A stretch of 64,000 nt of DNA from assembly GCA_030683105.1 (NCBI GenBank), contig JAUXMZ010000003.1, forward strand, positions 86,703 to 150,702, in the 5' to 3' direction. Position numbers and translations under genes: made by a program. Of the stretch, positions 11,798 through 63,965 are shown in pieces. The notes under the pieces are model-generated. The model had not been told where the DNA came from, did no database searches, and was given only the letters and a program-made list of their open reading frames with translations. This stretch comes from Burkholderiales bacterium (GTDB taxonomy: Bacteria > Pseudomonadota > Gammaproteobacteria > Burkholderiales > SG8-41). Position 1 is the stretch's first letter. Each line of letters opens with the position of its first letter.

Positions 11798-12436
11798 ATG
11801 ACTATGAGTAATCCAAAAAATGAAACCAGTGCGGCGGACCCTCGCCGCTTCAGGCTGATCCCGCTCGATCAGCTCACACCCGAACAACTCACACTGTCCG
11901 ACGCGATAAAATCCGGTCCGCGCGCCAAGCTCAAGAGTTCGGGCGCGTCCAAGCCGGGACCGCTCGGCGGGCCGTTCAACGTCTGGCTGCGCAGTCCGGG
12001 CATCGGCGACCTGGTGCAACGGCTTGGCGAAGAGATCCGTTTCCGCAGTTCGCTGCCGCCCAAACTCAACGAGCTGGCGATCTTGATCACGGCGCGCCAC
12101 TGGACTTCACAATACGAATGGTTCGCCCATCACAAGCTGGCACTGGAGGGCGGGCTGGCCCCGGCGCTTGCGCAGGCGATTGCGCAAGGCCGTTGCCCGG
12201 CACAGATGGGCGATGACGAAGCGATCGTCTACGATTTCTCGTGCGAGCTGCACGAGAATAAAGAAGTCAGCGATGCCACCTATCAGGCCGCGCTGGACCG
12301 CTTCGGCGAGCGCGGCGTAGTCGACCTCATCTCGGTAAACGGCTTTTACTCGCTGGTGTCGATGTGCCTGAACGTCGACCGTACGCCGCTGCCGGAGGGG
12401 GTGACGCCCCCGCTACCGCCGCTCGGTGAGCGGTGA
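11798..12436 (+). CDS. carboxymuconolactone decarboxylase (AhpD-like) family protein
   Basis: 212 aa; ELAILITARHWTSQYEWFAHH pattern typical of CMD-family proteins. Confidence 0.75.
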   Translation: MTMSNPKNETSAADPRRFRLIPLDQLTPEQLTLSDAIKSGPRAKLKSSGASKPGPLGGPFNVWLRSPGIGDLVQRLGEEIRFRSSLPPKLNELAILITARHWTSQYEWFAHHKLALEGGLAPALAQAIAQGRCPAQMGDDEAIVYDFSCELHENKEVSDATYQAALDRFGERGVVDLISVNGFYSLVSMCLNVDRTPLPEGVTPPLPPLGER

Positions 12437-12550
12437 GCGTTCAAGGTTCGTTGTTCGTGATTGGTGATTGGTGATTGGTGATTGGTGATTGGTGATTGGT
12501 GGTTCGTAAACGGTGAGAGGCTAGAGTTCAACGTTCAACGATTAACGAGC
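12437..12550. repeat. heptamer array region, core GTGATTG x6 (12457-12498)
   Basis: Starts directly after the TGA stop at 12434-12436; six perfect GTGATTG units flanked by GTTCGTT/GTTCAAC-type units. Confidence 0.9.
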
Positions 12551-12689
12551 CATTTTTTTCAATAATCGCTCGACGGGTACGATCAACGTTCATGGTCCGT
12601 TTCTGCACGATCACCATCCGAGTAAGTTAAACTGACATCTTGAATACTCGCTTTCCCCGCAGGGTCGGGGGAGGCGATTATTTTAAAGG

Positions 12690-39847: not shown

Positions 39848-39944
39848 CAGCCTGTCGGACTTGGCTCCCGTTCACCGGAACGGGTGGTGTTAACGAATCG
39901 CCGTTAATCGACGCTTCGGTGACAGGCTGCTTAAGCAAGAGGCT
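39845..39944. repeat. roughly 100-nt structured repeat element, copy 1 (second copy at 63868)
   Basis: About 90 percent identical to 63868-63965; terminal inverted repeat AGCAGCCTGTC/GACAGGCTGCT plus internal hairpins; its first three bases are the TAG stop of the cyclase gene. Confidence 0.85.
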
Positions 39945-45800: not shown

Positions 45801-46697
45801 AGCATTCCGCCCGCGATTGAAGTACCGGCGAGTCCGGTGCAGCCGGCTGCGGAGCGCGTGCGGGAACTGCCGGCTCTTGACATCGTCGCCGACCAGTTCC
45901 AGATCAAGGGCAAGCAACTCGGAAAACTGGAGTTGACCGCGGTTTCGGAAGCGCGCGACTGGCGCATCGAGAGGTTGCGACTCACCAATCCGGATGGCGC
46001 GCTTGCGGCTGACGGTGTGTGGCAGAACTGGCATACGCAGCCGCGCACCCAGATCAATCTGCAGTTGGAGACCGGCGACATCGGCAAGCTGCTGACCCGC
46101 CTTGGCTACCCGGAGGGCGTGCGCCGCGGTACCGCCAAGGTGCACGGCACACTGGCCTGGCCGGGAAGCCCGCAGGATTTCGATTACCCGCAGCTGTCCG
46201 GCAACATCGTGCTGGAAGCGGCAAAAGGGCAGTTCGTCAAACTTGAGCCGGGCATAGGCAAACTGCTCGGCATACTGAGCCTGCAGGCGCTGCCGCGCCG
46301 CATTTCGCTGGATTTTCGCGATATTTTCAGCGAAGGGTTCGCCTTCGATGAAATTCTCGGGGGGGTCAATATCAGCCGCGGCGTGGCCACCGCCAATAAT
46401 TTCCGCCTCCGTGGCCCGTCGGCGAACGTGGTGATGGCAGGAGATGTCGACCTTGCGAAAGAAACGCAGAAACTGCGCGTAAAAATTACGCCCAGCATCA
46501 GCGATGCGGCATCGATTGCGGGTGCGCTGATAGGCGGGCCGATAGCGGGTGTTGCCGCGTTTCTCGCCCAGAAACTGCTTAAAGACCCGCTGGATCAGAT
46601 GGCTTCATACGAATACGACGTGACTGGAACCTGGGCCGATCCCCAGGTGCAGAAAGTGGATAATCAAAGCGACCAGCAGCAAGGCAAGGTGCAATGA
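42822..46697 (+). CDS. yhdP: YhdP family (AsmA-like, TIGR02099-type) large envelope protein
   Basis: 1291 aa; N-terminal TM anchor, long beta-rich body, conserved C-terminal ..GDVDLAKETQKLRVKITP.. region; start uncertain (TTG 42822 or GTG 42864). Confidence 0.85.
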   Translation: MLFDYRIFSFFRQNVPISVRLKWLHISSLWVYRILTWAVLAVGFACAAIVLSLRYWVLPNIEQYRGDIAQAVSHTVHQRVTIGKISANWDGMRPELVLENVILFDAANQPALELPRVDNTLSWLSLLTLELRFYSLEFHRPVLNVKRDARGTIWVAGIALTQRPEEGDGVADWLLRQREIVVRDAEISWLDEMRGAPQLDLKHVGLRVENRGDRHRFGLRAVPPPHLASPLDLRGDLRGDSVKILSEWNGNMFVQLDYADIAAWRTWVPYPIEFPQGAGALRLWLDFSQNQLQNIVADVRLADVRTRLAKDLPELELIALSGRVAWKSAAPGFEFSSSKLSLKAKGGLSMQSLDFLLRITGGDGSKPERGELKANALDFEPLVALADRLPFEVGLRQQLVALAPRGSLYDVDVRWTGEWREPSQYSVRGRFQDLALKSYRKIPGFSGISGNIDGNEKAGALHLNTGAARLDMPLVFREPLQFEAFTAQLGWLRGSAGAELRMNSISFSNQHLAGTLFGSYRMPAAGGSVIDLTGNLTRADARYGSLYVPLVVGKSARDWLDLAFIDGQSNDVALRLKGNLADFPFADGKTGIFQVVAKVTGAVINYGAKWPRIENVAGELNFRGKRMDVFARQGSILGAKLGKVHAEIPDLISNENVLRVTGEAEGPTGEFLAFIEKSPVNDMVDRFTEGMRAQGNGKLTLKLEIPLHALDKTKVTGGYQLINNVISGGDDLPPLEQANGRLDFSESSVRVQNATGTFMGGPVSMSAVTQRDATVRGTLQGQANFDSLRRAGGAPAWMLSLRGSAPWRGSFVLRNKLADLVLESNLQGVASDLPAPLVKSAAEAVALRIERRYLGKQQDQIIVSYGDIVSANLQRRTEAGASVIRRGNIRLGSIAPEPQRDGVSIAGSLKSLNVDRWLALAGGGSDGMKIDFSTIDLKIGEIEALARRFNDVALVGTMQGGAWRATVSGRELEGTATWQPQGRGKLTARLKKLSIPPAIEVPASPVQPAAERVRELPALDIVADQFQIKGKQLGKLELTAVSEARDWRIERLRLTNPDGALAADGVWQNWHTQPRTQINLQLETGDIGKLLTRLGYPEGVRRGTAKVHGTLAWPGSPQDFDYPQLSGNIVLEAAKGQFVKLEPGIGKLLGILSLQALPRRISLDFRDIFSEGFAFDEILGGVNISRGVATANNFRLRGPSANVVMAGDVDLAKETQKLRVKITPSISDAASIAGALIGGPIAGVAAFLAQKLLKDPLDQMASYEYDVTGTWADPQVQKVDNQSDQQQGKVQ

Positions 46698-46857
46698 CCG
46701 GCGGCGCACGCCTGTCCCTCTCAAGTTACGCATTTCAATATGGTACGCTTGCGACCTGCTCCTCCCTGACGCAGGACACTTTGCCGGCAGACTGGGTTAT
46801 ATTCGCGGTATGACCTGCGCCGGCCTCCGCCTCACTGCCATTTTTTGCACGCCCCGC

Positions 46858-47205
46858 ATGCGTGCCGCGTTAGCGGCGCTTAGATTCGCGCTGGCGGCGG
46901 GTATGGCGGGCGCGGCGTTGCCGGCCTGGGCCAACGACACCTACACGATAGGGATCGAGTTGTGGGACCGGCCGCGCAGTGGCAGTGTCGTCATTGAGCA
47001 TCCGGCGGTAAAGCGGGCCGTCGACGCTTATCTGGCCCGATCCGGCGCAACTCTCGTCATACACCACGCCGTGGGACAGGAGCCGTTGTTGCAGGCTGAA
47101 GAACTGCGTGCATGGCTGATCGCGCTCGCCGTCGAAACCGGGCGCGTCAGCCTTAGAAGCGGGCTGAAACCCGGCGAACCATTGAAAATAGAAGTGATGC
47201 GATGA
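46858..47205 (+). CDS. small secreted protein of unknown function
   Basis: Start set at ATG 46858 (signal peptide MRAALAALRFALAAGMAGAALPAWA/ND); the TGA stop overlaps the ATG of the next gene (ATGA), suggesting coupling. Confidence 0.5.
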   Translation: MRAALAALRFALAAGMAGAALPAWANDTYTIGIELWDRPRSGSVVIEHPAVKRAVDAYLARSGATLVIHHAVGQEPLLQAEELRAWLIALAVETGRVSLRSGLKPGEPLKIEVMR

Positions 47206-48056
47206 GCATTGAAACCAAGACAAACAAAAACGCCGGAGCTGCGCCTGCGATGTCGCGCATCGCCGCGGTGCAGATGGCTTCGGGCCCCAACATCGAGGCC
47301 AATCTCAACGAGGCGCGGCGCCTGATCGAGATCGCGGTGGAACGCGGTGCGCAACTCGTTGCGCTGCCCGAGTATTTCGGCATCATGGGCATGCGCGATG
47401 GCGACAAGGTTGCTGCGCGCGAAGAGCATGGCAAAGGCCCGATACAGGAGTTTTTGTCGAACACGGCAAAAAAACATTCGATCTGGCTGGTCGGAGGATC
47501 CGTGCCGCTGGTGTCCTCGGTAGCAACCAAGGTTCGCAACAGCTGTCTGGTGTTCGACGACAAGGGCGGACTTGCGGCGCGCTACGACAAGATTCATCTG
47601 TTCGGCTTCAAGATGGGGGAGGAGCGTTACAGTGAAGAACTCACCATCGAGCCGGGCAGCGATGTCGTTACCGTGGATACGCCCGTGGGCCGGCTTGGGT
47701 TGTCGATCTGCTATGACCTGCGTTTCCCTGAACTGTACCGCGCGATGAAGGAAGTCGACATCATCCTCGTGCCATCGGCCTTTACCGAGACCACCGGCAA
47801 GGCGCATTGGGAGACCCTGATCCGGGCGCGTGCCATCGAAAACCTGGCCTATGTGCTGGCGCCGGCGCAGGGTGGCTATCATGTGAACGGCCGCGAGACG
47901 CATGGGGACTCGATGATCGTCGATCCCTGGGGGGTGGTGATAGACCGCCTGACGCGCGGCTCCGGCGTGGTGACGGGCGGCATCAATCTCGATCATCTGC
48001 GGCGGCTGCGCCAGAGCCTGCCGGCGCTGCAGCACCGGATCCTGCATCAATGTTAA
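47202..48056 (+). CDS. carbon-nitrogen hydrolase family protein (Nit/omega-amidase-like)
   Basis: 284 aa; ALPEYF (Glu), KIHLF (Lys), LSICYDLRFPE (Cys) catalytic-triad contexts. Confidence 0.88.
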   Translation: MSIETKTNKNAGAAPAMSRIAAVQMASGPNIEANLNEARRLIEIAVERGAQLVALPEYFGIMGMRDGDKVAAREEHGKGPIQEFLSNTAKKHSIWLVGGSVPLVSSVATKVRNSCLVFDDKGGLAARYDKIHLFGFKMGEERYSEELTIEPGSDVVTVDTPVGRLGLSICYDLRFPELYRAMKEVDIILVPSAFTETTGKAHWETLIRARAIENLAYVLAPAQGGYHVNGRETHGDSMIVDPWGVVIDRLTRGSGVVTGGINLDHLRRLRQSLPALQHRILHQC

Positions 48057-48105
48057 GTTCCGGGTTCAAAGTTCCAGGTTCAAAGTTCCGCGTTCCGGGT
48101 TGAAA
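48057..48105. repeat. heptamer array GTTCCGG GTTCAAA GTTCCAG GTTCAAA GTTCCGC GTTCCGG GTTGAAA
   Basis: Begins at the base after the TAA stop of the Nit-family gene. Confidence 0.9.
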
Positions 48106-48176
48106 ACCTGCGGGCGCGCCACGATCTTTAATACTTTAACGAGCCACCAGCGCTGTCAGCCGGTGCTGGAACAATA

Positions 48177-49700
48177 ATGAAACCACAGAATAAAACCGCA
48201 ACACGAACCATTCTTCACAATACCCGCTTGACGGGTACGAATCACGAATCACGAATCACGACACACGACACATCGTTCGCGACCGCGAACGACATCCTGT
48301 TGGCGCCATACGCGCTCGACGGCAGCCGGCTGCAGTCGATATTCGGCCAGATCATGACGCACAGCGTCGATTATGCCGATCTCTATTTTCAGTACAACCG
48401 CAGCGAGTCATGGAGTCTGGAAGAAGGCATCGTCAAGTCCGGCAGCTTCAGCATCGACCAGGGCGTGGGCGTGCGGGCGATCAGCGGCGAGAAGACTGCG
48501 TTCGCCTATTCCGATGACATCAGTTTTGATGCGCTCAATACCGCGGCGCATGCCACCCGCGCCATCGCCCGCCAGGGACGCGGCGGATCGGCGCAGGTGG
48601 AGAAGCGCAACACCGGGCACAATCTGTATCTGCCGCAGGATCCACTGGCAAGCCTTGATGACCAGGACAAGGTGTCGCTGCTGGAACGGTTGGAACGCCA
48701 CGCCCGCGCACTCGACCCGCGCGTAACCCAGGTGATGGCCTTTCTGGCCGGGGAATACGAGGTGGTGCTGGTGGCGCGCAGCGATGGCGTGCTGGCGGCC
48801 GACGTGCGGCCCCTGGTGCGGCTTTCCGTTCAGGTCATCGTCGAGCACGAAGACCGGCGCGAGCAGGGCAGTGCCGGCGGCGGCGGGCGCTTCGATTACG
48901 CTTATTTCACCGATGCCATGCTGCAGGACTACGCCAGGAAAGCAGTGGACCAGGCGCTGATCAATCTCGACGCGCGGCCCGCGCCTGCGGGAACCATGAC
49001 GGTGGTGCTGGGGTCGGGCTGGCCGGGCGTGCTGCTGCATGAGGCGATAGGCCATGGCCTCGAAGGCGATTTCAACCGCAAGGGCACCTCGGCATTCAGC
49101 GGCCGCATCGGCGAGCGCGTCGCCGCACCCGGGGTCACGGTGGTTGACGACGGCACCATGGCACAGCGGCGCGGCTCGCTCAACATCGACGACGAAGGCA
49201 ACCCGACGCAGTGCAATGTGCTGATCGAAAACGGCGTGCTCAGGAGTTACCTGCAGGACAGCCTCAATGCGCGCCTGATGAAAGTGGCGCCCACCGGCAA
49301 CGGACGGCGCGAGTCGTACGCGCATATCCCCATGCCGCGCATGACCAACACCTATATGCTCAACGGCGGCAGCGATCCGCAGGAGATCATCGCCTCGGTC
49401 AAAAACGGCCTGTATGCGGTGAACTTCGGCGGCGGCCAGGTCGATATCACCAGCGGCAAGTTCGTGTTTTCGGCCTCCGAAGCCTACATGATCGAAAACG
49501 GCAAGGTGACCTATCCGGTGAAAGGCGCGACGCTGATCGGCAACGGCCCGGATGCGCTGACCCGGGTGGCGATGATAGGCAACGACATGGCGCTCGATTC
49601 CGGTGTCGGCACGTGCGGCAAGGAAGGCCAGAGCGTGCCGGTGGGCGTCGGGCAACCGACCCTGAGAATCGACGGGTTGACTGTTGGCGGCACTGTCTAG
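48177..49700 (+). CDS. tldD: metalloprotease TldD
   Basis: DYADLYFQ.., [26 protein letters not shown] motifs; the N-terminal ~30 codons are repeat-derived, so the true start is uncertain. Confidence 0.9.
48218..48273. repeat. hairpin motif CAATACCCGCTTGACGGGTAC followed by heptamers GAATCAC x3, GACACAC, GACACAT
   Basis: Motif recurs at 52604-52624 and, degenerate, at 12560-12580; lies inside the 5' end of the tldD ORF. Confidence 0.85.
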
Positions 49701-49750
49701 AAGTGCGGTGAATGGTGAAGTGCGGTAATTGGTGAATGGTGAATGGTAAA
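49701..49750. repeat. heptamer array GTGAATG/GTGAAGT/GGTAATT-type (about 7 units)
   Basis: Starts at the base after the tldD TAG stop. Confidence 0.8.
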
Positions 49751-49777
49751 AGCGGCGCTACGCTCGCCGCTTATTTA
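49750..49777 (+). terminator. hairpin AAGCGGCG-CTACGCT-CGCCGCTT followed by ATTT
   Basis: 8-bp GC-rich stem directly after the heptamer array downstream of tldD. Confidence 0.5.
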
Positions 49778-49875
49778 CTGTCTCTATTTTCAAGCCCCCG
49801 GCATCTGCCAATCTTCATCCTTTATCCTTATGGCATCCTGCTATAATGCGTTGATTTCTCAAGCTTTGGATCGAC

Positions 49876-50946
49876 ATGCACCATAAAACCGACGATATAC
49901 GCATCACCGAGATCAAGGAACTCGTACCGCCGTCGCACGTGCTCCGGGAATTTGGTTTGTCCGAAACCGCGGCGCAGACCACATTCGATACCCGGCAGGC
50001 GATACATCGCATCCTGCACGGCGCCGATGACCGGATACTGGTCATCATGGGCCCATGCTCCATCCACGACGTCAAAGCGGCCAAAGACTACGCGGCCAAA
50101 CTGAAGGAGACGAAAGACCGCCTCGCCGCCGATCTGCTGGTGGTGATGCGGGTCTATTTCGAGAAGCCGCGCACGACGGTGGGATGGAAAGGCCTCATCA
50201 ACGACCCTTTTCTCGACGGCAGTTTTCGCATCAACGAGGGCCTGCGCATCGGCCGCCAGTTGTTGCTCGAACTGAACGAATCCGGCATGCCGGTCGGCTG
50301 CGAGTTCCTCGATATGATCACGCCGCAATATCTCGCCGACCTGGTGTCATGGGGGGCGATCGGTGCGCGTACCACGGAGAGCCAGATTCATCGCGAACTC
50401 GCCTCCGGCCTGTCGTGCCCGGTCGGTTTCAAAAACGGCACCGACGGCAATATCAAGATCGCGGTGGATGCCATCCGCGCGGCTCAGGCGCCGCACCATT
50501 TCCTGTCGGTGACCAAGGCCGGGCATTCGGCCATAGTCTCGACCAGCGGCAACGAAGATTGCCACGTCATTTTACGCGGCGGCAAGAACACGAATTTTGA
50601 TGCGGCCAGCGTTGATGCCGCGGCCAGGGAGTTGGCGACAGCCGGCGTGCCGGCGCGGCTCATGATCGATTTCAGCCACGCCAACAGCAGCAAAAATCCG
50701 CAGAAACAGATCGATGTCGGCCACGACGTCGGGCGCCAGGTCGGGGGCGGTGAAGACCGCATATTTGGTGTCATGGTGGAAAGCCACCTCAAGCCGGGCC
50801 GCCAGGATCTGGTGCCCGGCAAAGAACTGGTGTACGGTCAGAGTATCACCGATGGGTGCATCGGTTGGGAGGACAGCCGTGCCCTGCTCGACAATCTGGC
50901 TGATGCCGTGCGCAAGCGCCGGCTCAAGGCAGGGGCCGGGCAGTAA
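49876..50946 (+). CDS. aroG: class I 3-deoxy-7-phosphoheptulonate (DAHP) synthase
   Basis: 356 aa; ILVIMGPCSIHD, KPRTTVGWKGLINDP motifs; isoenzyme specificity not determinable. Confidence 0.9.
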   Translation: MHHKTDDIRITEIKELVPPSHVLREFGLSETAAQTTFDTRQAIHRILHGADDRILVIMGPCSIHDVKAAKDYAAKLKETKDRLAADLLVVMRVYFEKPRTTVGWKGLINDPFLDGSFRINEGLRIGRQLLLELNESGMPVGCEFLDMITPQYLADLVSWGAIGARTTESQIHRELASGLSCPVGFKNGTDGNIKIAVDAIRAAQAPHHFLSVTKAGHSAIVSTSGNEDCHVILRGGKNTNFDAASVDAAARELATAGVPARLMIDFSHANSSKNPQKQIDVGHDVGRQVGGGEDRIFGVMVESHLKPGRQDLVPGKELVYGQSITDGCIGWEDSRALLDNLADAVRKRRLKAGAGQ

Positions 50947-51025
50947 GCGTCTAAACGGCGCTGCTTTAAACCGTTTCAGAGCCGGTGCTTTTGCCGAGGA
51001 TCATCGTCATTGATGGGCGAATAAT

Positions 51026-51562
51026 ATGGCGCAAGACGAAAATGGAGCGGAAACCAACCAGGACACCCTGCTTAATCTTGAGCGGGTAGGCAAGGGCACG
51101 GCGCTCGCCGATGAAATTTACGGCCTGGTTGGCAGATCGCAGTTTTTCGCCGAGTTCAGCCGCGAGGACATCATGCTGCTCTCCGGTTATATGGAAGCGT
51201 TCCGCGCCCAGCCCGGAGAAACCATCATTCGCGAACACGATGAAGGTGATTTCATGCTGCTGATCATCGAGGGCGAAATCGACATATTCAAAAAAGGCCT
51301 GCGCCAGGAGCAGCAGCACATGACCAGTGTCGGACCGGGCATGACGCTGGGCGAGATGTCGATGATAGACGGCGAGCCGAGATTCGCCACCTGCGTTGCA
51401 ACCCAGTCCACCCTGTTCGCCGTGCTCACACGCGACAACATGGCAAGAATCATTCTTGACCACCCGAGTCTGGGTTCCAAGATACTGGTCAAGCTGGTCA
51501 GCATGCTGTCGCTGCGGCTGCGCCAGACCAGTGCCAGGCTGCTCAAGTACATGGAGCGTTAG
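51026..51562 (+). CDS. stand-alone cyclic nucleotide-binding domain protein
   Basis: 178 aa; ..GETIIREHDEGDFMLLIIEGEIDIF...GMTLGEMSMIDGEPRFATCVA.. cNMP-binding beta-roll pattern. Confidence 0.8.
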   Translation: MAQDENGAETNQDTLLNLERVGKGTALADEIYGLVGRSQFFAEFSREDIMLLSGYMEAFRAQPGETIIREHDEGDFMLLIIEGEIDIFKKGLRQEQQHMTSVGPGMTLGEMSMIDGEPRFATCVATQSTLFAVLTRDNMARIILDHPSLGSKILVKLVSMLSLRLRQTSARLLKYMER

Positions 51563-51595
51563 GAATTTGCCGGACTTGTGTGCGACAAATTCCTA
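51560..51595. terminator. 10-bp stem TAGGAATTTG ... CAAATTCCTA with 16-nt loop
   Basis: Includes the TAG stop of the cNMP-binding gene and is followed by AAAATG; the loop is large, so function is uncertain. Confidence 0.3.
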
Positions 51596-51635
51596 AAATG
51601 AAAGCACTGAAATTATCGGGAATGGAATAAGCCGC

Positions 51636-52550
51636 TTGCGCTGTGCAGCGTTGGCCGTGGGGGCGTTGCTGCTGATGCAGAATGTGACCGCGGCGGCGGC
51701 GGTGTCGCTCACCGATGATCGCGGCCGGACACTGGTGCTTGCCGCGCCGGCGCAGCGCGTCGTCACGCTCGCACCCCATCTCGCCGAGATCGTATTTGCC
51801 GCCGGCGCCGGCGGGCGGCTGGCCGGGGTTGCGCGCTTCAGTGATTTTCCTGAAGCCGTCATGCACTTGCCGCAGGTGGGCGACGGTGCGCGCGTCGATC
51901 TGGAGCGCATCATTGCGCTTAAGCCCGATCTCATCCTGGCGTGGCAAAGCGGCAATCAGGCGGCGGATATTGAGCGCCTCGAGAAACTCGGTTTTCCCGT
52001 GTTCGTCACCGAACCCGCGCGCCTGATGGACATTCCGCGCCTGCTGCGGGCAGTCGGTGTGTTGGCCGGCACGCTGCCAGCCGCAGAACAGGTCATTGAT
52101 AAATATATAAATAATATTAAAGAGTTACGAAATTCGTATGGTGGGCACCCAGCGTTGCGCGTGTTCTACGAGATCTGGCACCGTCCGCTGCTGACCGTGA
52201 ACGGCAGTCACATCATCAGCGACGTGCTGGCGTTGTGCGGCGGACGCAACGTGTTCGCCGCCGCACCGGTGCAGACGCCGACGGTGTCCATCGAAGCGGT
52301 GCTGGCGGCACAGCCCGATGTCATAGTCGGTGGCGGCTCTGCGGTCGCGGCAGACGAATTCGCCGCGCAGTGGCGCGCATCCCCGATTCCGGCGTTGCGC
52401 GAACTGCCGGTGTTTTATGTCGATCCCGATACCATCCAGCGGCAGACGCCGCGGATTGTGGAGGGGGCGAGAACGATCTGCGAGGCGCTGGAAAAAGTCA
52501 GGGTTAGCCGCCAAGGCCGCCAAGAAAAAACTGATCGAAACCGCAGATAA
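51636..52550 (+). CDS. cobalamin-binding periplasmic protein (BtuF-like)
   Basis: 304 aa; ..RVVTLAPHLAEIVFAAG....LKPDLILAW.. class III SBP pattern; TTG start is tentative; the last ~15 codons (VSRQGRQEKTDRNRR) are encoded by a repeat element. Confidence 0.7.
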   Translation: MRCAALAVGALLLMQNVTAAAAVSLTDDRGRTLVLAAPAQRVVTLAPHLAEIVFAAGAGGRLAGVARFSDFPEAVMHLPQVGDGARVDLERIIALKPDLILAWQSGNQAADIERLEKLGFPVFVTEPARLMDIPRLLRAVGVLAGTLPAAEQVIDKYINNIKELRNSYGGHPALRVFYEIWHRPLLTVNGSHIISDVLALCGGRNVFAAAPVQTPTVSIEAVLAAQPDVIVGGGSAVAADEFAAQWRASPIPALRELPVFYVDPDTIQRQTPRIVEGARTICEALEKVRVSRQGRQEKTDRNRR

Positions 52551-52762
52551 ACGCGGATACACACAGATAAAGTCAAAAACAATCAGCCACAGAGGATTCA
52601 CTTCAATACCCGCTTGACGGGTACACAGAGGGAATATAAAAAAGTCGAATCACGACTCGCGATTCACGGCATTTCGGAACCGCCAAGGCGCCAAGTCGCC
52701 AAGAAAAACTGATTGAAACCGCAGATGAGCGCCGATGAACGCGGATAGGCATGCAGGGTGTG
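52507..52762. repeat. composite repeat: two direct copies of a CCGCCAAGG..AAACCGCAGAT..CGCGGATA element flanking the TACCCG hairpin motif
   Basis: Copy A 52507-52560, copy B 52679-52762; the CCGCCAAGGCGCCAAG core recurs inverted at 54158-54174, and the GGATAGGC..ATGCAGGGTGTG tail recurs at 54883-54908. Confidence 0.8.
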
Positions 52763-52824: not shown

Positions 52825-53793
52825 TCAGTAAAGTTCGGCAAGCAATTGCTCCAGGGCTGCCCGGCGCTCCGGTGGCGTTGGGGCAAGCAGGCCTTGCTGT
52901 TGCAGTATCGCCAGCAGCTTGCGCGGGGCGATTTCCTTGTTGCCGACGATCTCGACGTGTCCGGCCTCGACTTCGATGTTGACCAGTTGCGGATAGTTGT
53001 CGACGACCGGATGGTATTGCTCGGCGAGGCTGAAGATGTAATCGCTCTCGAGACAGGTTCCGTTCGCGCTTTTGCGGCGACAGGTATCGCGCTCATCCGT
53101 GACGACCTTGAGGTATCGCCGCACCGAGGAAAGCAACGGTCCCGGGTGCCGGATGAAATTCGACGTCGAGGTGATCTCATGCCAGTTGTCGCCGGTCACG
53201 ATCCAGCATATTCCGGGGACCGCACCCAGGCTCAGCCAGTTCAGCAGGCTGGAGCCACAAGGATTGGCGGCCTGGATGCCGGCCAATGGCGCTGAAATGG
53301 TAGCGAGTTTTATGCTTGCCTCATTCCGTAGCCACTCACCGCGGCGGTCGCGCTCCATCGCCTTGCGCGCCACCAGGCCACCCATGCTGTGCCCGATGAC
53401 GGTGAGGTCGTGGTCACGTATGTTGCTGGCCAGTTCATCGAGCGCCGAGATCAGCTGGCCCGAGCTGAGAACCAGGCTTTCACGATCGTCGTAGCTGAAG
53501 CAGACGGCCTGCTGTCCATGGAATGCATACAACTGCGCCAGCGAACGAAACCGGCCGGCCGAGCCATTGCAGCCATGCACCAGGACGGTCACCGGGTAGT
53601 TCGTGTTCAGATGCAGCGTGCGATCCGGAGAGTCGGTGCATGGCCTCAGATGCGGCACATTCAGGGCCGCATTCGGAGGCGGCAGGCGACCGGGCTCCAG
53701 GGGTTGCGGCTCCGGCACATACTGGGGTGAAATCACGCATCCGGCCAATGTAACCAGGATGGAAATGATGAACAAGGCTGAAGAAGGGCTCAT
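52825..53793 (-). CDS. lipoprotein, alpha/beta-hydrolase (lipase/esterase, PGAP1-like)
   Basis: Lipobox LAGC at residues 16-19; nucleophile elbow GHSMGG; 322 aa. Confidence 0.75.
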   Translation of the reverse strand: MSPSSALFIISILVTLAGCVISPQYVPEPQPLEPGRLPPPNAALNVPHLRPCTDSPDRTLHLNTNYPVTVLVHGCNGSAGRFRSLAQLYAFHGQQAVCFSYDDRESLVLSSGQLISALDELASNIRDHDLTVIGHSMGGLVARKAMERDRRGEWLRNEASIKLATISAPLAGIQAANPCGSSLLNWLSLGAVPGICWIVTGDNWHEITSTSNFIRHPGPLLSSVRRYLKVVTDERDTCRRKSANGTCLESDYIFSLAEQYHPVVDNYPQLVNIEVEAGHVEIVGNKEIAPRKLLAILQQQGLLAPTPPERRAALEQLLAELY

Positions 53794-54157
53794 GGTCGTG
53801 ATCCTCGCTGGGTTTCCGGGATGGGCGCTACACCCTCAGAGCCCAACACCATCCGGGTGATTCTATATTCAATGGTGGATAAAATCAGTTGAACTGAACC
53901 GCTGGATTTAAAGCGCGGTGCTCTGGAGATTGTAACGATGCGTTCGTGCCGCAGAGCGCGGTTTGGTCCTGTGGTCGCCGGATAGGGGCAGCGGGTGGAC
54001 ATCGTCACGGGGGCGCGAAGCCTCGTCAGGGGACGAAATCACTATGACAGATGCGCATTCGAGGGTCAACGGCGATGAAACCTCGGGGTCAGACGACCAA
54101 GACAGCTGCTTCGCTACGGCTCGGGGCAAGCATCACAGTTATAAATTCTTTGTCTTT

Positions 54158-54282
54158 CTTGGCGCCTTGGCGGTCTATCAAAGCAGTAATTGGTAATTGG
54201 TAAATAGTCATAACCTTCGCAGGACGCTTTGCGCTTTTACCATTCACTATTCACTATTCACTATTCACGAATCACGAATCAC
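54158..54282. repeat. repeat cluster: inverted CCGCCAAGGCGCCAAG core, GTAATTG x2-3, then TATTCAC x3 / GAATCAC x2
   Basis: Direct reading; the last units overlap the stop codon and final codons of the minus-strand adenosyltransferase gene. Confidence 0.85.
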
Positions 54283-54830
54283 CGATTCTTCCCTTGCTGC
54301 CAAAGCACATCACAGCCGCCGGCATGACGATTCAAAACCCGCGCCAGCACGAACAGCAGATCGGACAGCCGGTTCAGGTAGTGCAGCGCGGGCGCGGCGA
54401 CCGCTTCCTGCTGCGAAAGTGTTACCGCCCTGCGTTCGGCGCGGCGGCACACGGTGCGCGCGACATGGGCGAGCGCGGCGGCGCGCGAACCGCCGGGCAG
54501 GATGAAGTCCTTGAGTGCCGGCAGGTTGCCGTTGAAATCATCGAGCGCGGTCTCGAGCCGCGTGACATGCGCGTCGGCGATCACGGCATGGCCGGGCAGG
54601 CTTAACTCGCCGCCGAGATCGAACAGATCGTGTTGCACGTCGATAAGACATGTCCGAACGGGGTCTGGCAGGTCCTCGGCCAGCAACACGCCGATGCTGC
54701 TGTTCAATTCGTCCACTGCGCCCATCGCTTCGACGCGCAGCGCGTCCTTCGCCACCCGTGAACCATCGGAGAGACCGGTGGTGCCGTCGTCACCAGTGCG
54801 CGTGTATATTCGGGTCAGCCGGTTTGCCAT
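54279..54830 (-). CDS. ATP:cob(I)alamin adenosyltransferase, PduO-type
   Basis: Start moved to ATG 54830: MANRLTRIYTRTGDDGTTGL.. canonical PduO/MMAB N-terminus, 183 aa; the remaining upstream part of the 442-aa ORF is not coding. Confidence 0.88.
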   Translation of the reverse strand: MANRLTRIYTRTGDDGTTGLSDGSRVAKDALRVEAMGAVDELNSSIGVLLAEDLPDPVRTCLIDVQHDLFDLGGELSLPGHAVIADAHVTRLETALDDFNGNLPALKDFILPGGSRAAALAHVARTVCRRAERRAVTLSQQEAVAAPALHYLNRLSDLLFVLARVLNRHAGGCDVLWQQGKNR

Positions 54831-54998
54831 ATGCGTGAATTGTTCCAGACGCAACGTTCCAATTATAGAGTGAGTGGCTGTGGCCGGATAGGCGGGTGTA
54901 TGCAGGGTGTGTCGTGATATGCTGTTTTCATGAGCAGACCGGCAGCAGCCGGTTGTCCCGGAAACATACAGTGACCTACCCATGATCAGGAGAAGAGC

Positions 54999-55442
54999 AT
55001 GTTCAAGCACATTCTGGTTCCGACTGACGGTTCGAGGCTGTCGCACAAGGCGATGAGCGCTGCGATGAAGCTGGCGAAGCTGGCCGACTCCCGCCTCACC
55101 GTGCTGCATGTCGTGGCCCGTATCAATCCGCTGCTGTTCACAGATGGTTACGTGATCGAGCCGGAGCTGCTCAAGGATTACGAAGCAGCGGAGCACGAAA
55201 AAGGCGAGAAATACCTCAAGAAAGCGGCCGCCGCCGCTGTGAGGATGGGCGTGCGCTGCACAACCCGGCTGGTCACCTCCGATACGCCGCACAAGGTGAT
55301 CATTTCCACCGCCCGCAGCCGCGATTGCGACGTCATCGTGATGGCTTCCCACGGACGCGGCAACCTGTCGGCCTTGCTGATGGGCAGCGAAACGACTCAG
55401 GTCCTTGCCCACTGCAAACGGCCGGTGCTGGTTGTGCGCTGA
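54999..55442 (+). CDS. universal stress protein (UspA family)
   Basis: 147 aa; MFKHILVPTDGS.. and ..VMASHGRG....LMGSET..V pattern; AGGAGAAG SD. Confidence 0.88.
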   Translation: MFKHILVPTDGSRLSHKAMSAAMKLAKLADSRLTVLHVVARINPLLFTDGYVIEPELLKDYEAAEHEKGEKYLKKAAAAAVRMGVRCTTRLVTSDTPHKVIISTARSRDCDVIVMASHGRGNLSALLMGSETTQVLAHCKRPVLVVR

Positions 55443-55561: not shown

Positions 55562-56659
55562 ATGATCTCCCGCATACGGCCGTTGGTGCTCGGCGAGCGG
55601 TATTCACGGCTCAAGCAGGCGCGCGCCGCGCGCCATGCCCGCATCCTGTACACCCGCAGCGAGGCCACCCCCGAGAAGACCATCGCCGTGCGCTTCGCGG
55701 CCATACTCGCGGCATTTTTGCTGGTGGTCGCCGTCTTCTGGTTCGACCGCGACGGTTTGAAGGACGCACTCGATGGCGTGGTCTCGTTCACCGACGTGCT
55801 GTATTTCACGATGGTTACCGTCACCACCGTTGGGTACGGCGATATTGTTCCGGTGTCGGACCGCGCGCGGCTGCTCGACGCATTTCTGGTCACGCCGGTG
55901 CGCATTTTCGTGTGGTTCGTGTTTCTGGGCACCGCTTACGAACTGGTGATACAGAAGGTGCTGGAGGATTTCAAAATGTCAAAACTGCATCAACAACTGA
56001 CCGGTCACATCGTGGTCTGCGGATATGGCGTGACGGGGCAGATCGCGGCAAGGGAGATGGTCGCGAAAGGCAATGCGCCGAACAAAATCGTAGTCATCGA
56101 CATGGCCGAACAGCGTTTGCAACTGGCGGCAGCATTGGGTTATGTCGGCCTGCGCGGTGATGCGGCGAGCGAAGACATAATGCGGCTGGCCAACGTGGGA
56201 AAGGCGAAAGTGGTGATGGTCAGCCCGGGGCGCGACGATACCAGCGCATTGATCGTGCTGACAGCGCGCAACATCAACCCGAAGATCAAGATCGTGGCCA
56301 GCGTCAACGAGGAGGAAAACTTCAAGCTGATCCGCCAGGCTGGCGCCAACGTCATCGTCGCGCCTTCGCGTGTCGGCGGCTTCCTGCTGGCCGACGCGGT
56401 GGAGAACTGGCATGTCGCCGAGTATGTGCTGGACCTGCTGACCGCGGACGGCAGGGTGAGCCTGGTGGAGCGTCTCGCCAGGGCTGAGGAAATCGGGAAC
56501 AATGCCCTCGAGGTCACCGACGGTTTGCTGGTCCGCATTTTCCGCAGTGGCGAAAAAATCGGTTTCTGGGAAAAGGACAAGCTCACGATCAAGGCCGGCG
56601 ATATCCTGCTGGTCATCGTGCACAACGACACCGGGGCGGAGGCCAGCCAGCAGGCCTGA
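55562..56659 (+). CDS. two-TM potassium channel with cytoplasmic RCK (TrkA-N) domain
   Basis: Selectivity filter TVTTVGYGD; Rossmann-like HIVVCGYGVTGQ after the pore domain. Confidence 0.85.
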   Translation: MISRIRPLVLGERYSRLKQARAARHARILYTRSEATPEKTIAVRFAAILAAFLLVVAVFWFDRDGLKDALDGVVSFTDVLYFTMVTVTTVGYGDIVPVSDRARLLDAFLVTPVRIFVWFVFLGTAYELVIQKVLEDFKMSKLHQQLTGHIVVCGYGVTGQIAAREMVAKGNAPNKIVVIDMAEQRLQLAAALGYVGLRGDAASEDIMRLANVGKAKVVMVSPGRDDTSALIVLTARNINPKIKIVASVNEEENFKLIRQAGANVIVAPSRVGGFLLADAVENWHVAEYVLDLLTADGRVSLVERLARAEEIGNNALEVTDGLLVRIFRSGEKIGFWEKDKLTIKAGDILLVIVHNDTGAEASQQA

Positions 56660-56683
56660 TTTGTTTGATTTGGTAACGGGCTC

Positions 56684-57010
56684 TTAGGGTAAATTCCCGC
56701 CGCGCGATTCGAGTTCCCGGATGCGGCTCTCCTTCGCGGTCACGAGTTGTTCGAGTTCAGCCACCCGTTTTTCCAGGCCACCGCTCAGGCGTTCCTGTTG
56801 CGACAGCTTCCAGCTTTTACGCATCGCGGCCGAGGTGGACAGCAGCGCGCTGAGGATGGCGCCTGCCACGAAGGTCAGGCCCAGGAGCAGCGCCAGCGAA
56901 CTTTCGAAGCGCCAGACGACGAATACCACCATTACCGTCGTGGCGTTCTGCAATGCGAAAACGATGGCGAGAATGACGATCGCCAGGGAAAAAATCAAGC
57001 GTGGGTTCAT
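56684..57010 (-). CDS. LapA family (DUF1049) inner-membrane protein
   Basis: Start moved to ATG 57010; 108 aa, two TM helices (..FALQNATTVMVVFVVWRFESSLALLL..), C-terminal coiled region; the long upstream ORF extension is discarded. Confidence 0.7.
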   Translation of the reverse strand: MNPRLIFSLAIVILAIVFALQNATTVMVVFVVWRFESSLALLLGLTFVAGAILSALLSTSAAMRKSWKLSQQERLSGGLEKRVAELEQLVTAKESRIRELESRGGNLP

Positions 57011-57169
57011 GGCTGCGTCCTTTCGTGGCCGGCACGTAATGGCCGGCAGATTGCCAGTGATGCCTGTGGACTCTATTATAGAGTAGTCTTCAATCGTGAA
57101 TCGCCGCGCGGATGAACGCGGCCGGCGTCCGAACCACGGGCGATTTTCTGCAACACCAGGAGATGGAAC

Positions 57170-59002
57170 ATGCTCCCCTCCCTGCCTGACGCCCATGCCA
57201 TTGCCGTACTGCTGCTGATCGTGGCCGCGCTGTATTTGTTTACCCGCGAGCACATCCCGCTGGAGACGTCCTCCCTGATCATCCTGGTCACCCTGGTGGT
57301 CGGCTTCGAGGTGTTCCCCTATGTGAGCAAAGATGTATTGCTGCGGTCGAGCGAATTTTTTACAGGATTCGGCAATGAGGCGCTGGTCGCCATCTGCGCC
57401 TTGATGATCGTCGGGCACGGCCTGGAAACGACCGGCGCGTTGCGGCCGCTCGCCTCACTGCTGTCGCGGATGTGGAAAATCGGCCCTCTGCTGTCTTTGC
57501 TCACGACCCTGGTGTCCGCCGCCGTGTTGAGCGCTTTTCTCAACAACACGCCCATCGTGGTCATGCTGCTGCCGATCCTGATCGGCGTGTCCCTGCGCAG
57601 CAAGCAGTCGGCCTCGGGCATCCTGATGCCCATGGGACTGGCGACGCTGGTGGGCGGCATGGCGACCACCATCGGCACCTCCACCAACCTGCTGGTGGTG
57701 GCCATCGCCTCCGACCTCGGGCTGCGCCAATTCGGGATGTTCGACTTCGCGCTGCCGGTAGTCGTGGCCGGCAGCTTCGGCATCCTCTATCTGTGGCTGA
57801 TCGCGCCGCGCCTGTTGCCGGCGCGCCAGCCGCTGCTGTCCGATACTTCGCCGCGTGTTTTCGACGCCTTGCTGCATATCAACGAGGACAGTTTCGCGAA
57901 CGGCAAACCCCTGTCAGAAGTTCTGGAAAAAACCGAGCGCAAGATGAAGGTGGAAAGCATCAGGCGCGGGGAAGGACTGACCGTCGCCAGGCTGCCCACG
58001 ACGGAATTACGCGAAGGCGACCGCCTGCTGGTGCGGGACACGCCTGAAAACCTCAAGGAGTACGAGCAGGCGCTCGGCGCGACGCTGTACAACGTCACCG
58101 ATATCGAACATCCGATCGACGAGGAACATCCGCTGTCGGCGGAAGGCCAGCAACTGGCGGAAGTGGTGGTGACCCAAGGCTCGCTGCTGCACCGGCACAC
58201 CCTCAAGCAGTTACGCTTCGCGGAGCGCTATAACCTGGTGATTCTGGCCATCCACCGTGCCCAGGGCGGGCAGGCGCTGACGGGCGACCTGAGTGACGTG
58301 CGTCTCGAAAGCGGCGACGTGCTGCTGCTGCAGGGATCGGATGAACGCATCGCCGAGTTGCGCAATAGCGGGAATCTGCTGGTGCTGGATGCGACGGTCT
58401 ATCTGCCGGAGACGCGCCGCGCCCGGCTCGCGCTCGGCATCATGTTCGGCGTGGTGGTCCTGGCTGCAACGGGCATCATGCCGATCTCGATCAGCGCGCT
58501 GTGTGGCGTCGCGCTGATGCTGCTGACGCGCTGCATGGATTGGGAGGATGCGGCCTCCGCCCTGAGCACCAGCGTGATCCTGATCGTGGTGGTCAGCCTG
58601 GCATTGGGCACCGCCCTGATGCGCACCGGAGGCGCGGAATACCTGGCCAGCCTGTACGTCGCCGTGTCATCCGGCATGCCGACCGTCGTGGTGTTGGGCG
58701 GTCTGATGCTGGTCATGGCGGTGCTGACCAATGTGGTGTCCAACAACGCGGCGGCGGTGATTGGCACGCCAGTCGCGGTCAGTATCGCGACCCAGCTCGG
58801 GGTTCCCGCCGAACCGTTCGTGCTGGCGGTGCTGTTCGGCGCCAACATGAGCTATGCGACCCCCATGGGCTACCAGACCAATCTGCTGGTTTTCAGCGCC
58901 GGCGGCTACAAGTTCTCGGATTTCCTGCGTGTGGGCATCCCGCTGACGCTGATCATGTGGGCGGGCCTGCTGTCCATGCTGATGTTCACATACAAACTAT
59001 AA
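57170..59002 (+). CDS. SLC13/DASS family permease with two central TrkA-C (RCK_C) domains
   Basis: 610 aa; TM blocks at both ends, central soluble ~200 aa with two repeats (..GKPLSEV..VESIRRGE.. and ..LKQLRFAERYNLVILAIHR..). Confidence 0.8.
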   Translation: MLPSLPDAHAIAVLLLIVAALYLFTREHIPLETSSLIILVTLVVGFEVFPYVSKDVLLRSSEFFTGFGNEALVAICALMIVGHGLETTGALRPLASLLSRMWKIGPLLSLLTTLVSAAVLSAFLNNTPIVVMLLPILIGVSLRSKQSASGILMPMGLATLVGGMATTIGTSTNLLVVAIASDLGLRQFGMFDFALPVVVAGSFGILYLWLIAPRLLPARQPLLSDTSPRVFDALLHINEDSFANGKPLSEVLEKTERKMKVESIRRGEGLTVARLPTTELREGDRLLVRDTPENLKEYEQALGATLYNVTDIEHPIDEEHPLSAEGQQLAEVVVTQGSLLHRHTLKQLRFAERYNLVILAIHRAQGGQALTGDLSDVRLESGDVLLLQGSDERIAELRNSGNLLVLDATVYLPETRRARLALGIMFGVVVLAATGIMPISISALCGVALMLLTRCMDWEDAASALSTSVILIVVVSLALGTALMRTGGAEYLASLYVAVSSGMPTVVVLGGLMLVMAVLTNVVSNNAAAVIGTPVAVSIATQLGVPAEPFVLAVLFGANMSYATPMGYQTNLLVFSAGGYKFSDFLRVGIPLTLIMWAGLLSMLMFTYKL

Positions 59003-59017
59003 GGGCCGTACGCGGCA

Positions 59018-63870: not shown

Positions 63871-63965
63871 CAGCCTGTCGGACTTGGCTCCATTCACCGG
63901 AACGCGTAGCGTTAACGAATCGCTGTTGATCGACGCTTCGGCGCCAGGCTGCTTAAGAAGAGGCT
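63868..63965. repeat. roughly 100-nt structured repeat element, copy 2
   Basis: Aligns with 39845-39944 (about 10 differences including 2 single-base indels); again its first three bases are the TAG stop of the upstream gene. Confidence 0.85.

Follow-up and report, generated by a model that had tools for sequence, protein, structure and literature searches.

The 3′ end of a btuF-like gene from a Burkholderiales bacterium is supplied by a chain of short tandem arrays. Comparison with orthologues shows that the predicted tail of BtuF is encoded by this repeat. Positions 52504–52749 of the window (the whole 64,000-nucleotide stretch that was analysed) are shown to comprise two neighbouring examples of a modular 'array of arrays'. 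The element is best read as a recombination-prone, BIME- or STRR-like mosaic in gene 3′ flanks with a putative function. The joint reading, in which modular arrays, a recombination-derived BtuF tail and a cis-acting 3′-flank element comparable to REP/BIME or STRR belong together, is held with moderate confidence.

Modular structure of the chain

Each module is built from a short leader (TTAGC, TTGAAC or GAAAC) and two or three tandem 7-nt cores with 0–3 variable spacer bases. A-rich linkers connect the modules, and their order is fixed. The stretch 52504–52668 is a single four-module chain that runs CGCCAAG, CGCAGAT, CACAGAG, GAATCAC (table 1). Local alignment of copy A (52504–52571) with copy B (52679–52750) scores 64, compared with 14.4 ± 2.5 and a maximum of 26 in 500 shuffles. 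Allowing one mismatch, the 23-mer AAAAACTGATCGAAACCGCAGAT has two copies in the window and none in 100 shuffles. All the sequences described in an earlier note on this DNA are present where it placed them, including the inverted core CCGCCAAGGCGCCAAG at 54158–54174, which is complementary at 17 of 17 positions. A recurrence of the tail GGATAGGC..ATGCAGGGTGTG (52743–52762 versus 54886–54911) can be aligned as that note had reported, but it is marginal (score 27 versus 14.6 ± 2.4, best shuffle 34). A '118-bp core between two copies' is not the best reading of the stretch. The intervening modules 3 and 4 are better taken as part of the ordered chain of copy A, which is present in other genomes.

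Table 1. Features of the btuF–pduO region, with positions in the window.
Feature	Position	Strand	Composition or basis
btuF-like periplasmic cobalamin-binding protein gene	51636–52550	+	ORF; homologues with PF01497, named cobalamin-binding protein
Copy A	52504–52571		TTAGC + GCCGCCAAG x2 (52504–52524), linker AAAAAACTGATCGAAAC (52525–52541), CGCAGATAAA/CGCGGATACA/CACAGATAAA (52542–52571)
Module 1	52504–52524	+	TTAGC leader + GCCGCCAAG x2; in-frame 9-nt period encodes (V)SRQGRQ
A-rich linker AAAAAACTGATCGAAAC	52525–52541	+	3′ end is the GAAAC leader of module 2; near-identical linkers in L123 and L124
Module 2	52542–52571	+	CGCAGAT-type units x3, 10-nt period; contains the BtuF TAA (52548–52550)
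Linker GTCAAAAACAATCAGC and module 3 (CACAGAGG x2)	52572–52631	+	Alignment with L057 and L008
A-run GAATATAAAAAAGT and module 4	52632–52668		GAATCAC-type units CGAATCACGACTCGCGATTCACG
Copy B, second, two-module chain	52679–52749	+	CGCCAAG x3 at 8-nt period (ACCGCCAAGGCGCCAAGTCGCCAAG, 52679–52703), linker AAAAACTGATTGAAAC (52704–52719), CGCAGAT/CGCCGAT/CGCGGAT (CGCAGATGAG/CGCCGATGAA/CGCGGATAGG, 52720–52749)
Alpha/beta-hydrolase gene	52825–53793	−	Pfam; has the direct arrays on one side and the inverted array on the other
Inverted CGCCAAG x2 module with leader	54155–54179	−	Minus strand GATAGAC-CGCCAAGGCGCCAAGAAA; exact pair
Heptamer arrays GTAATTG, ATTCACT, TCACGAA	54186–54288
PduO-type cob(I)alamin adenosyltransferase gene, convergent with btuF	54279–54830	−	Pfam PF01923, E = 1.8e-60

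Modules 3 and 4 are recognized through related loci (labelled L). Uninterrupted (ATC/TTT)GC-CACAGAG arrays occupy the position of module 3 in L057 and L008. A 28-nt insert, ATTCACTTCAATACCCGCTTGACGGGTA (52596–52623), splits the module in the window and carries a small hairpin, whose motif is found again at 48216 and in degenerate form at 12560. On the minus strand, module 4 and its A-run constitute a terminator-like hairpin and T-run (52666–52636) downstream of the hydrolase gene. In L008 and L053 the chain likewise continues into this 'AGAGTC-GAATCAC...' module.

TRF detects many 7-nt head-to-tail arrays in the window, the tandem unit typical of heptanucleotide SSRs and STRRs. The units of the composite itself have periods of 8–10 nt because of their spacers, and periods of 7, 8, 9 and 10 nt are all seen for one core. 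A six-frame ORF listing of the array region yields short repeat-derived ORFs. A protein-database search with a single query, a 58-aa minus-strand array ORF, returned no candidates and is uninformative on deposited spurious ORFs.

The repeat-encoded end of BtuF

The C-terminus of the window's BtuF reads VSRQGRQEKTDRNRR, and its stop codon falls within the first CGCAGATAAA unit. The last ~15 codons and the TAA lie inside the repeat chain, as the earlier note had proposed. The related locus L001 is 97.4% identical upstream, and its identity with the window stops at 52521–52524, within AGCCGCCA. Alignment of C-termini shows that orthologue tails are array translations in different frames (GRQ.. 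or DAKAAKK..). Module 1 has one unit in L123, two in the window and three in L124. The BtuF of L002 ends SRQ-TAA, with the array ~30 nt beyond, and the orthologue of L125 ends AGC CGC CGG TGA (SRR-stop) and is followed by no array. The comparison of orthologues, which the earlier note had set as a refuting test, revealed no shared tail and did not refute its proposal. An exact-protein look-up found no record of the window's BtuF, and a metagenome scan for BtuF loci gave a single distant locus.

A route to this arrangement emerges from comparison of the sequences at the junction. The native BtuF end, AGC-CGC-C(GG/AG)-stop, and the element leader with its first unit, (T)TAGCCGCCAAG, share 7–9 nt, AGCCGCC(A). 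(i) Loss of the native btuF stop is attributed to recombination or deletion across this short direct repeat; we infer this direction of change. (ii) With the native stop removed, translation reads into the in-frame GCCGCCAAG units and continues up to the TAA within CGCAGATAAA. (iii) Later slippage of units would change the tail. The convergent PduO-type gene also takes its stop codon (54279–54281, minus strand) from a repeat, the TGA of a GTGATTC unit.

Gene context, hairpin potential and distribution

The composite usually lies within ~50 nt after a stop codon and has its A-rich, T-poor side as sense strand; often there is an inverted partner with which it forms a long hairpin. Among the matches listed, the element begins a median of ~30 nt beyond the stop codon. 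Non-palindromic matches with a called gene no more than 200 nt upstream lie on the same strand as that gene in 49 cases and on the opposite strand in 19 (among the matches listed), a bias that is based on heuristic gene calls and could equally be explained by orientation relative to replication. Eleven array blocks of the window overlap a stop codon or begin within 10 nt of one. Heptamer arrays of the window also occur in both orientations and in divergent (promoter) regions, which counts against the best explanation.

The inverted CGCCAAG module lies downstream of the PduO-type gene and has the sense orientation relative to it. Its homologue at L001 7171–7203 forms a stem of ~55 bp with the arrays on the BtuF side. 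The arms in L001 are ~200–270 nt apart, according to the direct array used. The corresponding pair in the window (52679–52709 with 54152–54177) is separated by 1.4–1.6 kb across a gene. This alpha/beta-hydrolase gene is missing in L001, and synteny places four other genes there in L002. Folding is pronounced in the L001 intergenic region (z = −6.5). For the window region z is about −0.55 whichever strand is folded, a level of structure not above that of shuffles, which again speaks against the best explanation. No Rho-independent terminator follows btuF on the plus strand, and the count of terminator-like sites is not above that of shuffles. The covariance models of Rfam 15 match nothing in the window, whether the cut-off is the gathering score or E ≤ 1, and in 18 related loci they give only two matches, both away from the arrays.

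Arrays also mark the breaks in the alignment with L001. Megablast alignment of 12.9 kb of L001 with the window has two interruptions only, both at array sites. The sole clean presence/absence site is a 207-bp palindromic CGCCGAT-array element of L001 (9601–9806), which is missing at the otherwise 98%-identical window site 56660 and has a 1–2 nt AT ambiguity at its junction.

The chain is widely distributed. A 24-base composite pattern matches at least 119 stretches in 51 assemblies and about nine phyla, and the number expected by chance is estimated at 0.4–0.8, i.e. fewer than one. Carriers include Planctomycetota, Verrucomicrobiota, Proteobacteria, Chloroflexota, Acidobacteriota, Binatia and others. 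The earlier note's statement that similar CGCAGAT/CGCGGAT sequence occurs in other environmental genomes was correct, and the pattern search extends it well beyond Proteobacteria. The four-module order recurs in other betaproteobacterial MAGs next to unrelated genes; L008, L053 and L057 have the module order in common, with unrelated adjoining genes. The exact-match search pattern forces part of the apparent core conservation. Features outside its requirements are shared as well: unforced units are CGCAGAT in 97 of 171 cases among the matches listed. Most often a related element has exactly three CGCAGAT-type units (64 of 137 among the matches listed), and the commonest leader is TTGAAC (37/137 among the matches listed), other common leaders likewise ending in AAC. 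Spacer and linker 'dialects' are lineage-specific.

Known repeat systems and competing explanations

REP/BIME elements are extragenic, lie mostly in gene 3′ flanks and are mosaics of short motifs; their hairpins between convergent genes are thought to act in termination or mRNA protection. The composite resembles them in its extragenic 3′-flank location, in its ordered mosaic of few motif types and in its hairpin potential between convergent genes. REP/BIME units, however, are palindromes of 20–40 nt with a conserved head, whereas this composite consists of direct 7-nt repeats, none of them palindromic. The head GTAG or CGTC is missing, no RAYT-type gene is seen, and the composite is shared across phyla, unlike the species-specific REPs. 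BOX elements of Streptococcus pneumoniae are intergenic, with a boxA-(boxB)n-boxC plan, modules of 45–59 nt and stable folds, and are found in one genus. They are likewise modular, variable in internal repeat number and without a transposase of their own, but differ from the chain in module length, single-genus range and stable structures. Heptamer repeats are known from Xanthomonas and Nostoc (GGGNATC; PMC4692102) and from Beggiatoaceae, Cyanobacteria and Bacteroidetes (TAACTGA; PMC4679880). These and the cyanobacterial STRRs are intergenic arrays of 7-nt tandem units with a preferred unit number and a patchy distribution across phyla, as here. They are arrays of a single unit type, associated with G-quadruplexes or translational control, whereas here different cores, which are not G-rich, are chained with leaders and linkers.

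In the best explanation the chain would act in cis in gene 3′ flanks and be comparable to REP/BIME or STRR elements. (i) An array paired with an inverted partner could form a long hairpin between convergent genes and serve termination, insulation or transcript protection. (ii) An unpaired array would present an unstructured platform of repeated 7-nt sites to a putative sequence-specific factor. (iii) Through dispersed microhomology, indels and gene replacements would concentrate in the intergenic region. A further, tentative proposal goes beyond this: the CGCCAAG-CGCAGAT(-CACAGAG-GAATCAC) chain may be a previously undescribed class of bacterial cis-element, its module 'grammar' marking gene 3′ ends and probably being read single-stranded by one or more putative factors, either deeply conserved or horizontally spread. 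A full-text literature search found no description of the composite, although absence there is not proof of novelty.

Work on Geobacter metallireducens by Aklujkar et al. (2009, PMC2700814) described dozens of intergenic paired tandem-repeat sites in one genome, with IS elements inserted at a fixed distance from them. The architecture of three tandem 7–9 nt repeats in inverted pairs at variable distance is the same here, with arrays of 2–3 units and a typical number of three. One class, TCTCCGTS[Y], is the complement of CACGGAG (CACGGAGA) units in the loci analysed here (PMC2700814). Other elements are inserted inside the arrays in L076, L083 and L057, comparable to the insertion sequences that target the Geobacter sites. 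These parallels favour arrays of double-stranded binding sites for a nucleoid-associated or global regulatory protein, as proposed for G. metallireducens, yet we consider this explanation unlikely. Multi-module order and cross-phylum spread are not reported for the Geobacter sites, and the regulator-site role is itself a proposal there. Periods of 7–10 nt fit single-strand recognition better, as one core with periods of 7, 8, 9 and 10 nt would place successive sites on different helix faces, and the strand bias relative to the upstream gene is unexpected for a symmetric DNA role.

The earlier note had proposed a small non-autonomous element family that co-localizes with the heptamer arrays. 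The repeat family is real and does co-localize with them, but its MITE-like nature is not supported. A non-autonomous transposon, spread by transposition and carrying the arrays as terminal or subterminal transposase-binding repeats, is rather improbable. In favour of it, eukaryotic transposons such as Ac/Ds have short repeats in subterminal position. The 207-bp element of L001, without counterpart in the window, is discrete and folds to a near-perfect hairpin (z = −8.8); inverted repeats of ~45 nt bound the L001 btuF–pduO spacer, and many planctomycete copies are palindromic. Copies A and B, however, are direct and lack terminal inverted repeats, although L001 and planctomycete relatives do have inverted arms. 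All-against-all clustering of the ORFs of the 119 listed loci revealed no recurrent transposase or other specific family, only common housekeeping families (TctC, NtrC-type regulators, acyl-CoA dehydrogenase). No clear target duplication and no Rfam match was found either, the one clean presence/absence site giving only the AT ambiguity at its junction. Both the number of units and the spacers differ inside a copy and from copy to copy, as in slippage-prone arrays, and the lineage dialects speak for a long residence and not for a recent spread. Carriage by phages or plasmids was also rejected: the 24-base pattern has no match in viral contigs and a BLAST search gave no plasmid match, results that also weigh against a transposon.

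Against the best explanation, arrays abutting stop codons could simply fill neutral space. Functionless, microsatellite-like filler generated by slippage and at times overrunning dispensable C-termini is very improbable: heptanucleotides are the commonest long SSRs in many bacteria and are attributed to polymerase slippage (Mrazek 2007, as cited in PMC4679880), unit number differs among close relatives, and most intergenic regions of the window are array-filled, but slippage alone leaves unexplained why the same two cores, order and leaders turn up across about nine phyla, over 100 times more often than by chance, and why arrays are held at 2–3 units rather than drifting in length. The arrays upstream of tldD, moreover, are identical in two genomes whose aligned positions in that segment show 2.6% difference.

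Several functional readings were rejected. Stops in all three frames are not provided: TGA, TAA or TAG is frequent in leaders, and many heptamers of the window have a stop on one strand, but CGCCAAG and GTTCAAG arrays are stop-free on the sense strand. The gene stop is rarely the leader stop (~3 of 59 distances at 2–3 nt among the matches listed). CsrA/RsmE sites (CANGGANG) fit the CACGGATG and CAAGGACG variants only, and not CGCAGAT or the betaproteobacterial CGCCAAGA. With 25% C and 26% G the composite is not C-rich and G-poor, as a Rho loading site would be. Hfq (ARN)n runs in linkers are not longer than base composition predicts (mean longest run 2.58 versus 2.56 ± 0.07 in shuffles). A structured RNA was dismissed on the absence of Rfam matches and the shuffle-level folding of the window. 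The AAC...GTT ends prompted a comparison with integron attC sites, but RYYYAAC/GTTRRRY does not describe the core sites, and the arrays on the two sides of the inserted gene are inverted relative to each other, not direct. No associated protein was found among the ORFs of the 119 listed loci.

If the preferred reading of a modular, recombination-prone 3′-flank element is right, a model of the arrays would let annotation pipelines mask them. A cultured carrier exists, Lacipirellula limnantheis I41 (complete genome NZ_CP036339), and a closed Binatia genome (OZ244621) is also among the carriers. A non-coding pattern found across phyla at more than 100 times chance would point to a common trans-acting factor or mechanism in many environmental bacteria. 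The arrays would rewrite real gene 3′ ends, such as those of btuF and the PduO-type gene, creating variable C-terminal tails. As they lie at the only two breaks in the alignment of the ~97% identical L001 and window sequences, they may generally drive the gain and loss of genes on a small scale.

Modules of the composite

The repeat finding is real. Everything that the earlier note described at the end of the btuF-like gene is present in the sequence, and only the recurrence of the tail is marginal: the match between 52743-52762 and 54886-54911 exists, with a score of 27 (best shuffle 34). Local alignment of the two direct copies, A and B, scores 64, against 14.4 +/- 2.5 and a maximum of 26 in 500 shuffles. 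The 23-nt linker with its first unit occurs twice in the window at <=1 mismatch and never in 100 shuffles. The inverted CCGCCAAGGCGCCAAG is a perfect match.

The copies belong to chains of short-repeat modules in a fixed order (see table). Identical modules in identical order adjoin unrelated genes in other betaproteobacterial MAGs found as pattern matches (L008, L053 and L057). The 'TACCCG hairpin' of the earlier note is an insert that splits the CACAGAG module, and its 'AATCACG-like heptamers' are module 4. Both are accounted for within the first chain, so that the 118-bp 'core' said to be flanked by two copies is part of this chain instead; copy B is a second chain. The label 'MITE' is not established. 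Read on the minus strand, module 4 and the A-run before it resemble a terminator, with a hairpin and a T-run, and lie downstream of the hydrolase gene. An approximately 30-nt motif, ATTC..TTCA(C)AATACCCGCTTGACGGGTAC with a 6-bp stem, occurs three times in the window; the copy near 12560 is degenerate, and a further copy is placed at 48216. In two instances it sits a short way upstream of a gene (tldD and the gene at 12690), with ACGAATC-type sequence after the motif.

Features of the window and parts of the chain
Feature	Position	Strand	Description
btuF-like gene	51636-52550	+	
alpha/beta-hydrolase gene	52825-53793	-	
PduO-type cobalamin adenosyltransferase gene	54279-54830	-	
usp	54999-55442	+	
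First chain	52504-52668		four modules
Module 1			CGCCAAG x2-3
Linker 1			between modules 1 and 2; A-rich, terminates GAAC or GAAAC
Module 2			CGCAGAT-type units x2-3
Linker 2			between modules 2 and 3; terminates TCAGC or TTAGC
Module 3			CACAGAG x2-3
String			between modules 3 and 4; ..AA(A/G)AGTC
Module 4			GAATCAC-type units
Insert	52596-52623		28 nt; copy of the ~30-nt motif
Second chain (copy B)	52679-52749		two modules
Inverted CCGCCAAGGCGCCAAG	54158-54174		
~30-nt motif, other copies	48209-48238; 12552-12582		

The window has a G+C content of 61%, and the closest relatives of its btuF-like gene are in Burkholderiales and other betaproteobacterial MAGs. Nearly all intergenic regions hold tandem arrays that repeat every 7 nt (GTTCAAG, CGAATCA, GTGATTG, CTGCTCA, AAGCGGT, GTGAAGG and others). 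Eleven array blocks overlap a stop codon or start <=10 nt from one; array-touching gene ends are therefore the rule in this genome and not a peculiarity of btuF. A 212-aa gene without a Pfam match (11798-12436) has CGAATCAC/CGAACCAC arrays upstream (11691-11776) and inverted counterparts (GTGATTGG/GTTCGTG) downstream (12444-12516), with its stop codon inside a CGGTGAG array. This bracketing resembles that of the hydrolase gene by inverted CGCCAAG arrays. Two direct copies of a 68-nt sequence, 88% identical (39868-39935 and 63890-63957; CCGTTCACCGGAACGGGTGG..GCTGCTTAAG), of which the first begins about 20 nt past the stop codon of the gene 38522-39847, appear to be a dispersed element distinct from the arrays.

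Repeat-encoded gene ends

The BtuF C-terminus is VSRQGRQEKTDRNRR, with the TAA within CGCAGATAAA; the end of the gene is repeat-encoded, as the earlier note had proposed. Window positions 45668-52521 match the related locus L001 (JGI 3300032024) at 97.4% identity, and 56659-59746 at 98%. Identity breaks off at 52521, within AGCCGCCA. In L001 the btuF gene ends in two degenerate units, a linker and then GATTGA-GCCGCCAAGG, giving the tail EPPRVKIKNKKD-stop. Because L001 6897-6917 is 100% identical to window 52506-52526, the window looks as though the DNA between two (T)AGCCGCCA direct repeats had been deleted, and with it the native btuF stop. The gene in a second related locus, L002, ends AGC CGC CAG TAA (SRQ-stop), with TTTAGCCGCCAAGGCCGCCAAG about 30 nt downstream. 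In-frame GCCGCCAAG units number one in L123, two in the window and three in L124, followed by a near-identical linker and CGCAGAT module. L125, with 70% amino-acid identity, terminates AGC CGC CGG TGA and has no array downstream. Across 60 homologues the conserved protein end is ..VRxSR(R/Q). Where the tail is longer, it is array sequence translated in one of two frames (GRQGRQ.., DAKAAKK..) or translated linker plus module 2 (EKLIETADERR). The earlier note would have been refuted by orthologues that share one tail without repeats nearby; the reverse is seen.

The convergent PduO-type gene likewise takes its stop codon from a repeat: in the window the TGA of a GTGATTC heptamer (54279-54290), and in L001 (7202-7221) and L002 (about 12000-12020) the TGA of the GATTGAAC leader, the short sequence before an inverted CGCCAAG array. 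The C-terminus also varies: WQQGKNR* in the window versus ..GKNKD* in L001. The modular chain, its family across phyla, and gene tails encoded by repeats via microhomology-mediated fusion and unit slippage are well supported.

Distribution across phyla

One genome per GTDB species (596 Gb) was scanned with the pattern CGCCAAG N0-2 CGCCAAG N1-31 AACCGCAGAT, which specifies 24 bases and has a chance expectation, by our own arithmetic, of 0.4, or about 0.8 at 65% G+C. It occurs in at least 119 stretches, and the matches listed represent 51 assemblies. Among these are at least 13 of Planctomycetota, including the isolate Lacipirellula limnantheis I41, at least 10 of Betaproteobacteria and Burkholderiales, and at least seven of Verrucomicrobiota, Kiritimatiellia and Lentisphaerae. 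Alpha-, Gamma- and Deltaproteobacteria, Chloroflexota, Holophagae, Binatia, Methylomirabilota and WOR-3 each contribute one or a few. Several listed MAGs carry the name Streptomycetaceae; TctC-type proteins are encoded at their loci, which are probably betaproteobacterial. The pattern had no match in 2.9 million viral contigs, and BLAST of the region against plasmids gave none.

The search pattern itself dictates the cores of the first units, and their constancy is forced. The matches listed also have features in common for which the pattern did not ask: many have a third CGCCAAG unit, exactly three CGCAGAT-type units occur in 64/137, CGCAGAT makes up 97/171 unforced units, and TTGAAC is the commonest leader (37/137), with other common leaders likewise ending AAC. 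Spacers and linkers form lineage 'dialects': CGCCAAG-A with CGCAGAT-AAA in beta-like genomes, -GA with -GAA in Planctomycetota, and -TGA in the Kiritimatiellia MAG JBMNRV01. These dialects make the composite look like a long resident under constraint rather than a recent transfer. This MAG has about 40 pattern matches (L018 3700-4000 and other loci) and a module order of its own, CACGGAT, CGCCAAG, CGCAGAT, CACAAAG, with three tandem 101-bp super-units at one place. Its CACGGATG units fit the CsrA/RsmE consensus CANGGANG; its other modules do not.

Structural change, position and possible function

Megablast alignment of the window with L001 over 12.9 kb is broken at two places only, both array sites. 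Between btuF and pduO, L001 has a spacer of 350 bp, the window one of 1758 bp with the hydrolase gene, and L002 four other genes. The second site is a 207-bp palindromic CGCCGAT-array element in L001 (9601-9806; TAAC(CGCCGAT-NNN)x3 ... (ATCGGCG)x3 GTTAA), directly 3' of the stop codon of an Ion_trans_2/TrkA_N gene. It folds into a near-perfect hairpin (z = -8.8) and is absent at 56660 in the window, where the flanks are 98% identical. Its junction, at this one site, has a 1-2 nt AT ambiguity only and no clear duplication. Other small elements lie within arrays, between CGCAGAT-module units, in L076 (about 2453-2560), L083 and L057 (minus-strand match at 6576); one has inverted ends TGCCGTTACAACC...GGTTGTAACGGCA and (T)AAA on both sides. 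Arrays thus seem to be insertion targets, as is reported for IS elements in Geobacter metallireducens. Between the window and L001 there is hardly any change in the arrays upstream of tldD (48203-48280) and at 49700-49747. The GTTCCNN/GTTCAAA array directly 3' of the stop of the gene 47202-48056 (48055-48095 versus about 2395-2450 in L001) differs in unit number and sequence; the remaining intergenic region is nearly identical.

Genes were called by our own heuristic, long ORFs filtered on GC3. With these calls, among the non-palindromic matches listed that have a gene <=200 nt upstream, that gene shares the strand of the element in 49 cases and lies on the other strand in 19; stop codon and element are a median of about 30 nt apart. 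In the listed elements, A makes up 37% and T 11% of the sense strand, and C and G are about equally frequent. An inverted partner is present in L001 and many planctomycete copies; the L001 btuF-pduO spacer forms a stem of approximately 55 bp (z = -6.5) with both stop codons in its base. The window copies have their partner 1.4-1.6 kb away, and local RNA folding of the region gave no structure above shuffles.

The closest published description is that of paired tandem-repeat sites in G. metallireducens: three 7-9 nt units in inverted pairs at variable distance, targeted by IS elements and annotated as putative global-regulator sites (PMC2700814). Heptamer repeats of Xanthomonas and Nostoc resemble the composite in lying near stop codons (<50 bp) on the sense strand (PMC4692102), and TAACTGA repeats have a comparably patchy cross-phylum distribution (PMC4679880). 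No description of an ordered multi-module composite was found in the literature searched, coverage of which is incomplete. The composite may have a functional role, as suggested by where it lies, its strand bias, the hairpins that it could form in relatives, and its resemblance to REP/BIME and to the Xanthomonas and Nostoc heptamers. More interesting is its conservation across phyla.
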